5,578 bases of DNA from Escherichia coli. Lineage in GTDB: Bacteria > Pseudomonadota > Gammaproteobacteria > Enterobacterales > Enterobacteriaceae. The stretch lies in the NCBI RefSeq assembly GCF_003334335.1, contig NZ_QOWQ01000076.1. The stretch is one strand, 5' to 3'. Of this stretch, positions 154 to 4,854 are shown piece by piece (within the stretch, counting starts at the first letter, position 1; the number at the start of each line of letters is the position of its first letter). Position numbers and translations under genes: made by a program. Under the pieces are notes generated by a model that saw only the letters and a list, made by a program, of their open reading frames with translations, was not told the origin of the DNA and searched no databases.

Positions 154-744
154 TTATAGTGCATCTACCATATCCCGTACCTGAGATAATAACGACTGAT
201 AATAGCTCGCGTGAAGTTCTTCCCCATCGAATACCACTGTATTACACAAGAAAGTGACATCGGCATCTTCAATACCAAGATAACTGCACATATTTTTTAA
301 ATAATCGCTTATATTTTTTTCCCAGCCCATCTGGACAAATGATTCTTTGTCTCCTCCAACCAGCGCCACCCAACGAACTTTATTGAATGGTAATTTGTGC
401 CCATCTCCATAAGCCAGCCCATTATTCCATACTCTGTCAATATATCCTTTTAGCATTGCCGGGAAGCTGTACCACCAGAGAGGAAAAACCACCACTAACG
501 TGTCATGTTCAAGCAGCTCTGAATAAAGCTGATGAACCTCTGGAGAATAACGTTTATCCATATTCTTCCAGTCTGGTTCATCTTCCGGCGTCATCACTGG
601 GTTGAAATTACGCCGATATAAATCGAGTTCCGTCACCTGTATTTTCCGCTCCATTGCCCGCTGATGGATCGCATCAGCAATATGTGCGGTCAATGAATCA
701 TGACGAGGATGGGCCCATACCAAATAAATACGTTCAGACTGCAT
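154..744 (-). CDS. ycaK: Flavodoxin-fold NAD(P)H dehydrogenase (quinone)-like oxidoreductase, 196 aa
   Basis: ORF of 196 codons, ATG at 744-742, TAA at 156-154. GGAGG Shine-Dalgarno (complement of 752-756) sits 8 nt upstream of the ATG. N-terminal RIYLVWAHPRHDS resembles the AHP motif of the KefF/KefG/MdaB flavodoxin-like quinone reductase family. Length and sequence agree with my recollection of E. coli YcaK; neighbours match the expected order. Confidence 0.88.
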   Translation of the reverse strand: MQSERIYLVWAHPRHDSLTAHIADAIHQRAMERKIQVTELDLYRRNFNPVMTPEDEPDWKNMDKRYSPEVHQLYSELLEHDTLVVVFPLWWYSFPAMLKGYIDRVWNNGLAYGDGHKLPFNKVRWVALVGGDKESFVQMGWEKNISDYLKNMCSYLGIEDADVTFLCNTVVFDGEELHASYYQSLLSQVRDMVDAL

Positions 745-843
745 AATTTTACCTCCACGTTAAGTTCTGGAGCGCACTTTACGCAGGCGGCATAATCCTG
801 TAAACGTGATGATTCAGGATGAGTTAATGAAGGATTTTCACTA
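745..843. promoter_or_regulatory. Divergent ycaK/ycaN promoter region with candidate LysR-type operator dyad
   Basis: 99-bp spacer between divergent start codons. Candidate ycaK promoter on - strand: -35 TTTACA (complement of 799-804), 17-bp spacer, -10 TAAAGT (complement of 776-781). Candidate ycaN -10 CATAAT at 791-796 on + strand, and AAGGA RBS at 830-834 nine nt before ATG 844. Dyad ATCCTG (795-800) N14 CAGGAT (815-820) overlaps the ycaK -35. All hexamers were found by eye and are not experimentally supported. Confidence 0.35.
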
Positions 844-1752
844 ATGCGGATGAATATGTCTGACTTTGCCACTTTCTTTGCCGTGGCCCGTAATCAAAGC
901 TTTCGTGCAGCGGGCGATGAGTTAGGCTTATCCTCGTCCGCCATTAGCCATAGTATTAAAACACTGGAACAACGTCTTAAAATTCGCTTATTCAATCGGA
1001 CAACCCGAAGCGTATCGTTAACGGAAGCGGGTTCTAATCTCTATGAACGATTGCGCCCAGCTTTCGACGAAATTCAGATCATGTTAGATGAGATGAATGA
1101 TTTTCGTCTGACACCGACAGGAACGCTCAAAATCAATGCCGCCCGGGTAGCTGCACGTATATTTTAAATGTCTTTACTGGTTGGTTTCACACGTGAATAT
1201 CCTGATATTAAAGTCGAGCTCACAACTGACGACTCTCTTGTCGATATCGTCCAACAGGGCTTTGACGCTGGCGTTCGACTTAGTTGCATCGTCGAAAAAG
1301 ATATGATCAGCGTGGCGATCGGCCCGCCAGTGAAATTATGTGTAGCAGCAACGCCAGAGTACTTTGCAAGATATGGCAAACCCCGCCATCCTCATGATCT
1401 GCTTAATCATCAATGTGTTGTTTTTCGTTATCCCAGCGGCAAACCTTTCCACTGGCAATTTGCAAAGGAGCTGGAAATTGCTGTCGCAGGAAATATCATT
1501 CTGGATGATGTTGATGCTGAACTGGAGGCCGTTTTGATGGGTGCTGGTATCGGGTATCTGCTCTATGAACAGATCAAGGAGTACCTTGATACTGGTCGTT
1601 TAGAATGTGTACTGGAAGACTGGAGCACAGAGCGTCCAGGCTTCCAGATCTATTATCCAAACCGCCAGTATATGTCCTGCGGCTTGCGCGCATTTCTCGA
1701 TTATGTAAAAACGGGTCAGATCTGCCAGAGTCAGCGTCACCGACCACAATAA
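844..1752 (+). pseudogene. ycaN: LysR-family transcriptional regulator interrupted by in-frame TAA at 1165-1167 (N-terminal HTH fragment 844-1167, effector-domain fragment 1168-1752)
   Basis: One reading frame from ATG 844 to TAA 1750-1752 spans 303 codons; codon 108 is TAA (1165-1167) and is followed immediately by ATG 1168 in the same frame. The 107-aa fragment carries a typical LysR winged-helix HTH (FRAAGDELGLSSSAISHSIKTLEQRLKIRLFNRTTR). The 194-aa fragment begins in the LysR linker/substrate-binding region (LLVGFTREYPDIKVEL). 107+1+194 = 302 codons, the size I recall for intact E. coli YcaN, so this is a point nonsense change rather than a frameshift. Confidence 0.75.
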
Positions 1753-4541: not shown

Positions 4542-4854
4542 GAATTAAAACCGTGAGGAAGTTCAAATTTCATGCGCATCATGCCACCGCCAAAAACATT
4601 GTCAATGGGTGAAAATACGCGATATCCCAGCGGCGGTATTATCGATTAATATTACTCATTCATAACGCTAATGCTGAAGAGATGATTAGTCTCATCTGAT
4701 TGTTTTTATTGAACTAACACAAATTTCATACGCTTCGTTCAGTCGAAAAATTTCATGGTCACAGCAAACTCATATTTCCCGTCTATGCTTTCAGAGCAAT
4801 GCATCGCGTCTGATCGATTTCAGACGTACCACTGACTCTCGAAAGGAGAAGAGG
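4542..4854. promoter_or_regulatory. 313-bp divergent ycaD/ycaC control region
   Basis: AT-rich non-coding spacer between divergent start codons. TTGTCAA at 4599-4605 gives a perfect -35 TTGACA on the - strand (complement of 4600-4605) for ycaD, with a weak -10 CATGAT 16 nt downstream. AAATTTCAT occurs three times (4565-4573, 4721-4729, 4748-4756). Strong AGGAG RBS 5-9 nt before ycaC ATG 4855. No convincing ycaC -10/-35 pair was found by eye. Confidence 0.35.

Follow-up and report, generated by a model that had tools for sequence, protein, structure and literature searches.

A conserved LysR-type box next to the ycaN start codon is a likelier YcaN binding site than the inverted repeat in the ycaK-ycaN divergent promoter region of Escherichia coli

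Which DNA in the spacer between ycaK and ycaN would be read by the LysR family regulator YcaN, and is ycaK its target? A first-pass annotation had proposed an inverted repeat at 795-820 as the YcaN operator and ycaK as the regulated gene. The window, which is the whole stretch of 5,578 nucleotides that was analyzed, matches the segment of the E. coli chromosome that is flanked by pflA and dmsC and contains ycaK, ycaN, ycaM, ycaD, and ycaC; the names ycaK and ycaN given in that annotation are those of the RefSeq annotation. The ycaK gene (154-744, minus strand), assigned from its open reading frame and the RefSeq annotation, encodes an NAD(P)H oxidoreductase of 196 residues that matches the NCBIfam equivalog NF007280 with 354 bits (cutoff 162). 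Its Shine-Dalgarno sequence, GGAGGT at 751-756 on the minus strand, was identified by inspection and precedes the ATG by 6 nt. The ycaN gene occupies 844-1752 on the plus strand. At its other end, ycaN converges with ycaM at 1752/1753 with zero bases between the two stop codons, and the pair appears in a published list of convergent excludons (PMC12288877).

In the window, ycaN is a pseudogene whose reading frame is broken into 844-1167 and 1168-1752. From 600 to 1300 the window is 100% identical to strain ECCTRSRTH03 and differs from K-12 by one base, which changes Leu108 of ycaN from TTA to TAA. This premature stop codon (1165-1167, plus strand) is directly followed by an ATG (TAAATG, 1165-1170) and leaves one open reading frame of 107 residues, which takes in the DNA-binding domain and some of the linker, and another of 194 residues for the effector domain. 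RefSeq labels ycaN in the identical record NZ_CP041110 as a pseudogene with an "internal stop," while YcaN of K-12 is intact with 302 residues. An exact 61-mer match finds the stop allele in 33 complete E. coli genomes out of the 3307 that have this locus. Judging by the reading frames, at most a DNA-binding fragment could be produced from the ycaN of the window, and since the protein ends after 107 residues, regulation by a full-length YcaN tetramer is impossible in this strain.

Of 5426 complete E. coli genomes, about 3330 (~61%) contain the ycaK-ycaN region. Outside Escherichia, the closest ycaN orthologues have 85%, 79%, and then at most 76% identity, and they are scattered over the Enterobacterales with one in Caballeronia. 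The partial presence together with the scattered orthologues suggests patchy inheritance or transfer of the pair. A search of a plasmid collection returned E. coli copies only, followed by homologues below 50% identity.

The published YcaN regulon comes from Gao et al. 2021 (PMC8464067) and Rodionova et al. 2022 (PMC9068703), where it was concluded that the adjacent y-genes are regulated. ChIP-exo with YcaN-8myc in MG1655 grown in glucose M9 gave six peaks (cspE, ynjB, yobF, ung, rho, and yihQ) with signal-to-noise ratios of 1.06 to 4.45, and none of the six in the published list lies at ycaK/ycaN. With signals this weak, the experiment may have been insensitive, and at least two of the peaks (ynjB and yihQ) also occur in the list of another regulator in the same file and are thus perhaps unspecific. 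One ChIP-exo row naming "ycaN" at 939919 was rejected as a YcaN peak, as it stands outside the YcaN table. By RNA-seq, deletion of ycaN lowered ycaC and raised ycaD and focA, and ycaK is absent from the changed genes named (PMC9068703); that paper mentions ycaK only as a predicted Nac target, citing EcoCyc. In a review, the targets listed for YcaN are PycaC and PycaD. No operator sequence for YcaN is described in the literature searched.

We compared 17 aligned ycaK-ycaN intergenic regions, namely that of the window and those of 16 orthologous loci. Scanning a single genome from each species gave eleven ycaN orthologues of 59 to 74% identity (Limnobaculum, Caballeronia, Rahnella, two Cedecea, two Serratia, two "Enterobacter," and two Symbiopectobacterium), and a protein search added five more (one relative of 85% identity, two Pseudocitrobacter, Hafnia, and Shimwellia). 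All 16 loci, which lie in several chromosomal contexts, have a Flavodoxin_2/ycaK gene divergent to ycaN and about 100 bp away, which makes ycaK the partner that is conserved beside ycaN. The mean pairwise identity of the 17 sequences is 0.43 at 745-774, similar to the 0.45-0.47 seen at the third codon positions of both genes; it is 0.74 at 775-804, 0.68 at 805-826, and 0.85 at 827-843. Hence the segment 775-846 is under constraint (0.68-0.85 versus 0.43-0.47 for the neutral proxies), and it closes with the invariant block AATG at 843-846, which includes the ycaN start codon.

Promoter elements for ycaK lie within this constrained DNA. A promoter scan returned a single promoter-like site for ycaK, with a predicted −35 TTTACA at 799-804 (TGTAAA on the plus strand) and, after a spacer of 17 bp, a predicted −10 TAAAGT at 776-781 (ACTTTA on the plus strand), both read on the minus strand. 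The hexamers and their distance are those of a predicted sigma-70 promoter (9 of 12 matches; spacing within 16-18 bp). The −10 is invariant in the 17 regions and the −35, which had been proposed earlier at the same place, is identical in 16 with one TGTGAA, so that the proposal is borne out. From the invariant −10, the ycaK transcript is predicted to start ~7 nt downstream, near 769. We also observed an inverted repeat formed by TTTAC (778-782) and GTAAA (800-804), with 17 nt between the arms and its center at 791. Its five column pairs each keep their complementarity in 88% or more of the 17 orthologous regions, three of them in all 17; the repeat arises because the −10 (TAAAGT) and −35 (TTTACA) regions of ycaK are partly complementary.

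For ycaN, a promoter survey gives no predicted promoter on its own strand. The candidate −10 CATAAT at 791-796 (plus strand) suggested by the first-pass annotation is kept among the orthologues as nATAnT, with T793 invariant and A792, A794, and T796 nearly so; no conserved −35 partner for it is found in the orthologue alignment. An alternative candidate −10 is GATGAT at 808-813 (plus strand; orthologue consensus TAGTAT, T813 invariant), suggested by the distant homologues described below, in which a TAnAAT hexamer precedes the box by 12-13 nt and falls within 1 nt of the place of GATGAT. Within E. coli, 3161 of 3328 genomes have the same sequence at 785-846 and the other 167 differ somewhere in it, and this near uniformity makes population variation uninformative about the inverted repeat at 795-820. 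The commonest variant in the spacer, A794C, falls just outside that repeat and was found in both of the two single-mismatch variant genomes examined; it changes CATAAT to CATCAT and weakens this candidate ycaN −10.

The inverted repeat itself is present as claimed. Positions 795-820 read ATCCTGTAAACGTGATGATTCAGGAT, with perfect 6-bp arms ATCCTG (795-800) and CAGGAT (815-820) separated by 14 nt, and the center of this dyad, 807.5, lies at about −38 from the predicted ycaK start. The left arm does overlap the predicted ycaK −35 and CATAAT. However, a repeat of this kind is expected by chance. We made 5000 dinucleotide-preserving shuffles of the 99-bp intergenic region and counted those with at least one perfect 6-bp inverted repeat; such repeats occurred in 21%, 26%, and 34% of the shuffles when the spacer was allowed to reach 14, 20, and 30 nt, respectively, and the symmetry of the dyad thus does not exceed chance. 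Four other 6-bp inverted repeats occur between 700 and 900 of the window.

The geometry of the dyad also departs from the family pattern. A LysR recognition site has a T-N11-A core of 13-15 bp, read by one dimer, with half-sites about one helical turn apart (PMC11495319), whereas the arms of the dyad are 20 bp apart from center to center, with T796-N22-A819 in place of such a core. The third line of evidence is conservation. All six arm pairs form in E. coli and P. corydidari, five of six in the 85% relative and P. cyperus, and 0 to 3 of six in the other 13 of the 17 regions, whose consensus at the arms is ATTCTG...TGAGAT, although the DNA flanking the arms is conserved; the first-pass annotation had itself named this combination as one that would count against its operator. 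The four taxa form one clade in the YcaN tree, and the dyad therefore reflects a single evolutionary event. Several arm positions are already fixed by other elements (T799 and G800 by the −35, A795 and T796 by nATAnT) or belong to the invariant A819 and T820. In an unbiased scan of the 17 regions for conserved complementary column pairs, only two pairs around the center 807.5 are complementary in at least 80% of the sequences. With a geometry that is wrong for LysR, symmetry at the level of chance, and loss in 13 of 17 regions, the reading of the dyad as the YcaN operator is not supported, and the dyad is probably nonfunctional in the role proposed for it.

The same scan ranked another center, 834, first. 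It belongs to an imperfect palindrome, ATGAA-GGATT-TTCAC at 827-841, which we call box 1 and which, on the strength of its conservation, is the best candidate for a YcaN site in the spacer. Box 1 lies 30 bp to the right of the dyad and ends 2 nt before the ycaN ATG. It contains the T-N11-A core of a LysR-type site (T828...A840), and its extended arms, TTAATGAA and TTCACTAA, span 824-844. In E. coli, ATGAA and TTCAC pair at four of five positions and the extended arms at seven of eight; complementarity of the extended arms is 5 to 7 of eight in all 17 taxa, and TGA (828-830) and TTCA (837-840) are invariant throughout. The identity of 0.85 in this segment stands well above the 0.45-0.47 of the third codon positions. 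The center of box 1 falls at about −65 from the ycaK start predicted from the invariant hexamers, and about −65 of the target is the usual place of a LysR recognition site. In a single sequence, box 1 is only marginally unusual, as 4% of shuffles match it with the exact geometry and 18% with spacers of 3 to 9 nt.

Part of the conservation of box 1 has a second cause, because its central GGA is also the ribosome-binding site of ycaN: the Shine-Dalgarno sequence AAGGA, read from the sequence at 830-834 on the plus strand, sits inside the box spacer, and a GGA-type purine run is found at the same place in the orthologues and in the distant homologues. The GGAT at 832-835, which had been taken as a recurring half-site of the dyad, does recur; as a half-site, however, it fails, being part of the spacer and Shine-Dalgarno sequence of box 1.

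Copies and disruptions of box 1 were noted elsewhere. The window has five matches to box 1 versus 1.7 expected. Two near-copies with one mismatch each are ATGAATGATTTTCGT at 1093-1107, inside ycaN (codons for MNDFR), and ATGAGTAATATTAAT at 4645-4659 on the minus strand, in the ycaD-ycaC spacer; the latter adjoins genes reported as changed in the ycaN deletion. In E. coli ET650, an IS1 element is inserted inside box 1 at the equivalent of 838/839 in the window, between GGATTTT and CACTAATG; the ycaK promoter is thereby cut off from the right half-site and from ycaN.

As a further test of box 1, we asked whether it tracks the DNA-reading residues of the regulator, and it does so in both the orthologues and more distant homologues. 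Sixteen homologues at 40-45% identity, from alpha-, beta-, and gamma-proteobacteria and beyond (Paraburkholderia, Pseudomonas, Azospirillum, Kaistia, a cyanobacterial MAG, and others), carry ATGAG-N5-TTCAT, and here, as in E. coli, 2 nt lie between the end of the box and the ATG. Their recognition helix, SQSALSH, is nearly alike to SSSAISH of YcaN, and the wing RTTRSV is identical. Of the 23 distant homologues whose recognition helix has His, 16 carry TGA-N7-TCA before the ATG, compared with none of the 37 that have Gln or Tyr there (Fisher p = 1.6e-9, a statistic that ignores shared ancestry). The 37 Gln/Tyr homologues have TAAG/CTTA-like boxes at the same place, and among the 16 orthologues His and the box are both always present. 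The residue concerned follows S-A-L-S in the helix, and with respect to the half-sites at this fixed position before the start codon, Gln goes with TAAG/CTTA-like sequences and His with TGA/TCA. We regard this covariation of His and box as the strongest argument that YcaN would read box 1.

When the distant homologues are aligned on the box, the divergent gene has a −10-like hexamer, AATTTA, within 1 bp of the ACTTTA of E. coli. They also carry a second palindrome, GATTAG..AATC, 27 bp from their own box, with a center that corresponds to about 807 of the window. The divergent genes encode aldo-keto reductases, cupins, and carboxymuconolactone-decarboxylase-like proteins; as the ORF finder gave inconsistent gaps for these neighbors, only the clear cases were named by profile.

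Taken together, these results favor, at a probability of roughly 60%, the reading that the 99-bp spacer consists of a compact pair of divergent promoters that overlap one another and a LysR-type control region of the canonical kind, in which the dyad is incidental and restricted to one lineage rather than a recognition element. On sequence grounds, box 1 appears the likelier YcaN binding site of the two. The general idea that YcaN acts on a region shared with its partner ycaK is supported by the alignments; of the claim that ycaK is the target of YcaN, the gene is retained, being the divergent partner in all 16 loci across a shared region with a conserved LysR-type box, whereas the operator proposed for it is not.

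We propose that a YcaN dimer would recognize box 1 as a high-affinity anchoring site, while the second dimer of the tetramer would touch the less symmetric DNA at about 795-820, at −35 to −45 of ycaK; this second contact would also lie over the −10 and the start of ycaN itself. Binding of YcaN could then set ycaK expression in response to a ligand, and the same complex, covering the start and leader of the ycaN transcript, could lead to negative autoregulation. A near-consensus −35 is unusual for an activator-dependent promoter. Because the −35 of ycaK is a good match (5/6), YcaN may repress ycaK instead of activating it.

One alternative gives the dyad, or part of it, a genuine function: a secondary, activation-type YcaN contact that evolved in the Escherichia/Pseudocitrobacter lineage and is used by a tetramer whose other dimer is anchored at box 1. 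LysR activation sites have low symmetry, lie over or beside the −35 of the target at two to three helical turns from the recognition site, and are often unrecognizable from sequence (PMC11495319), and the dyad, at about −38 of the predicted ycaK promoter, has the position of one. Its center coincides with that of GATTAG..AATC in the distant homologues, its DNA is under constraint, and the four differences from the consensus of the other orthologues (at 797, 815, 816, and 817) all create complementarity. A weak T-N11-A in E. coli, T807...A819, which pairs at 4 of 7 positions and is centered 21 bp from box 1, overlaps its right arm, but this element is absent from the orthologue consensus as an activation site. 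The dyad itself is centered 26.5 bp from box 1, is not box-like, and is not conserved among the orthologues. Moreover, half-sites 20 bp apart misfit one LysR dimer, the arm ATCCTG is unlike the box 1 half-site ATGAA, and the dyad is missing in 13 of 17 orthologous regions whose regulators have the same recognition helix. Its single origin, its chance-level symmetry, and the arm positions already set by the promoter elements (T799, G800, A795, and T796) or invariant throughout (A819 and T820) weigh against it as well, and we consider such a contact unlikely.

A bolder proposal joins this contact to the helix data. Box 1 and the switch from His to Gln/Tyr in the helix would then form a simple, readable recognition code for a large, almost unstudied LysR subfamily found beside redox or detoxification enzymes, and the dyad of the Escherichia lineage would be a recent second contact of the activation type, having taken the place of the ancestral GATTAG..AATC when a strong ycaK −35 arose there. 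We put this forward as speculation, with the odds running clearly against the combined picture.

Could the dyad instead be the site of another regulator, such as Nac or some other dimer with widely spaced half-sites? Nac is predicted to regulate ycaK (PMC9068703, citing EcoCyc), and the spacing of about two helical turns would place both arms on one face of the DNA. Even with one mismatch allowed, however, the spacer contains no ATA-N9-TAT motif of the Nac type, our analysis found no regulator whose half-site is ATCCTG, and the dyad is unconserved and at chance level, which leaves this explanation very improbable. By eye, we also compared the surroundings of GCAC at 773-776 with a marbox (MarA/SoxS/Rob), and this candidate was rejected because it fails at most of the defined positions. 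A role of the arms as an RNA hairpin in the leader of a transcript is scarcely credible: a 6-bp stem of −6.3 kcal/mol can be drawn, but 25 of 200 shuffles fold as well (z = −1.14), no Rfam family matches the dyad, the arms lack covariation, either candidate ycaN −10 would start transcription downstream of the left arm, and the ycaK transcript runs the opposite way from ~769.

With the dyad set aside in favor of box 1, the locus becomes an ordinary textbook LysR arrangement with a new, testable box for an uncharacterized regulator. The autoregulatory site would be one that the published ChIP-exo missed, and the conserved box together with the invariant ycaK promoter offers a concrete fragment and concrete mutations for testing. 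Both also speak for ycaK, more than for ycaC or ycaD, as the partner that has stayed with YcaN in evolution. The published regulon concerns the same regulator and names ycaC and ycaD from RNA-seq, without an operator sequence or control of ycaK.

By profile, the nearest named relatives of YcaN in E. coli are YafC and AaeR; YcaN reaches no NCBIfam equivalog cutoff (YafC, 156 bits versus 470). The LysR homologues beside redox and detoxification genes have in common with YcaN the helix S-x-S-A-(L/I)-S-H, the wing RTTRSV, a box 2 nt before the ATG (theirs is ATGAG-N5-TTCAT), and a divergent neighbor of the oxidoreductase type. They differ in that they are only 40-45% identical to YcaN and have other target genes, and they show the clear palindrome GATTAG..AATC where the E. 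coli clade has the ycaK −35 TGTAAA.

A further comparison is with the divergent promoters of LysR-type regulators such as BenM, CbnR, DntR, and OccR. The ycaK-ycaN region differs from these in several features: box 1 stands 2 nt from the start codon of the regulator, which is unusually close, and includes the ribosome-binding site of that gene, the −35 of ycaK is near consensus, and the 26-bp dyad misfits the geometry of the family. As in those systems, ycaN is divergent from its putative target across ~100 bp, the spacer carries a T-N11-A site of 13-15 bp with imperfect dyad symmetry at about −65 of the predicted target promoter, DNA of lower symmetry lies over the ycaK −35, and box 1 overlaps the leader of ycaN itself, which fits autorepression. 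The LysR family has been described as using a high-symmetry T-N11-A regulatory site together with low-symmetry activation sites over the −35 (PMC11495319), and the geometry of the ycaN spacer matches this description.
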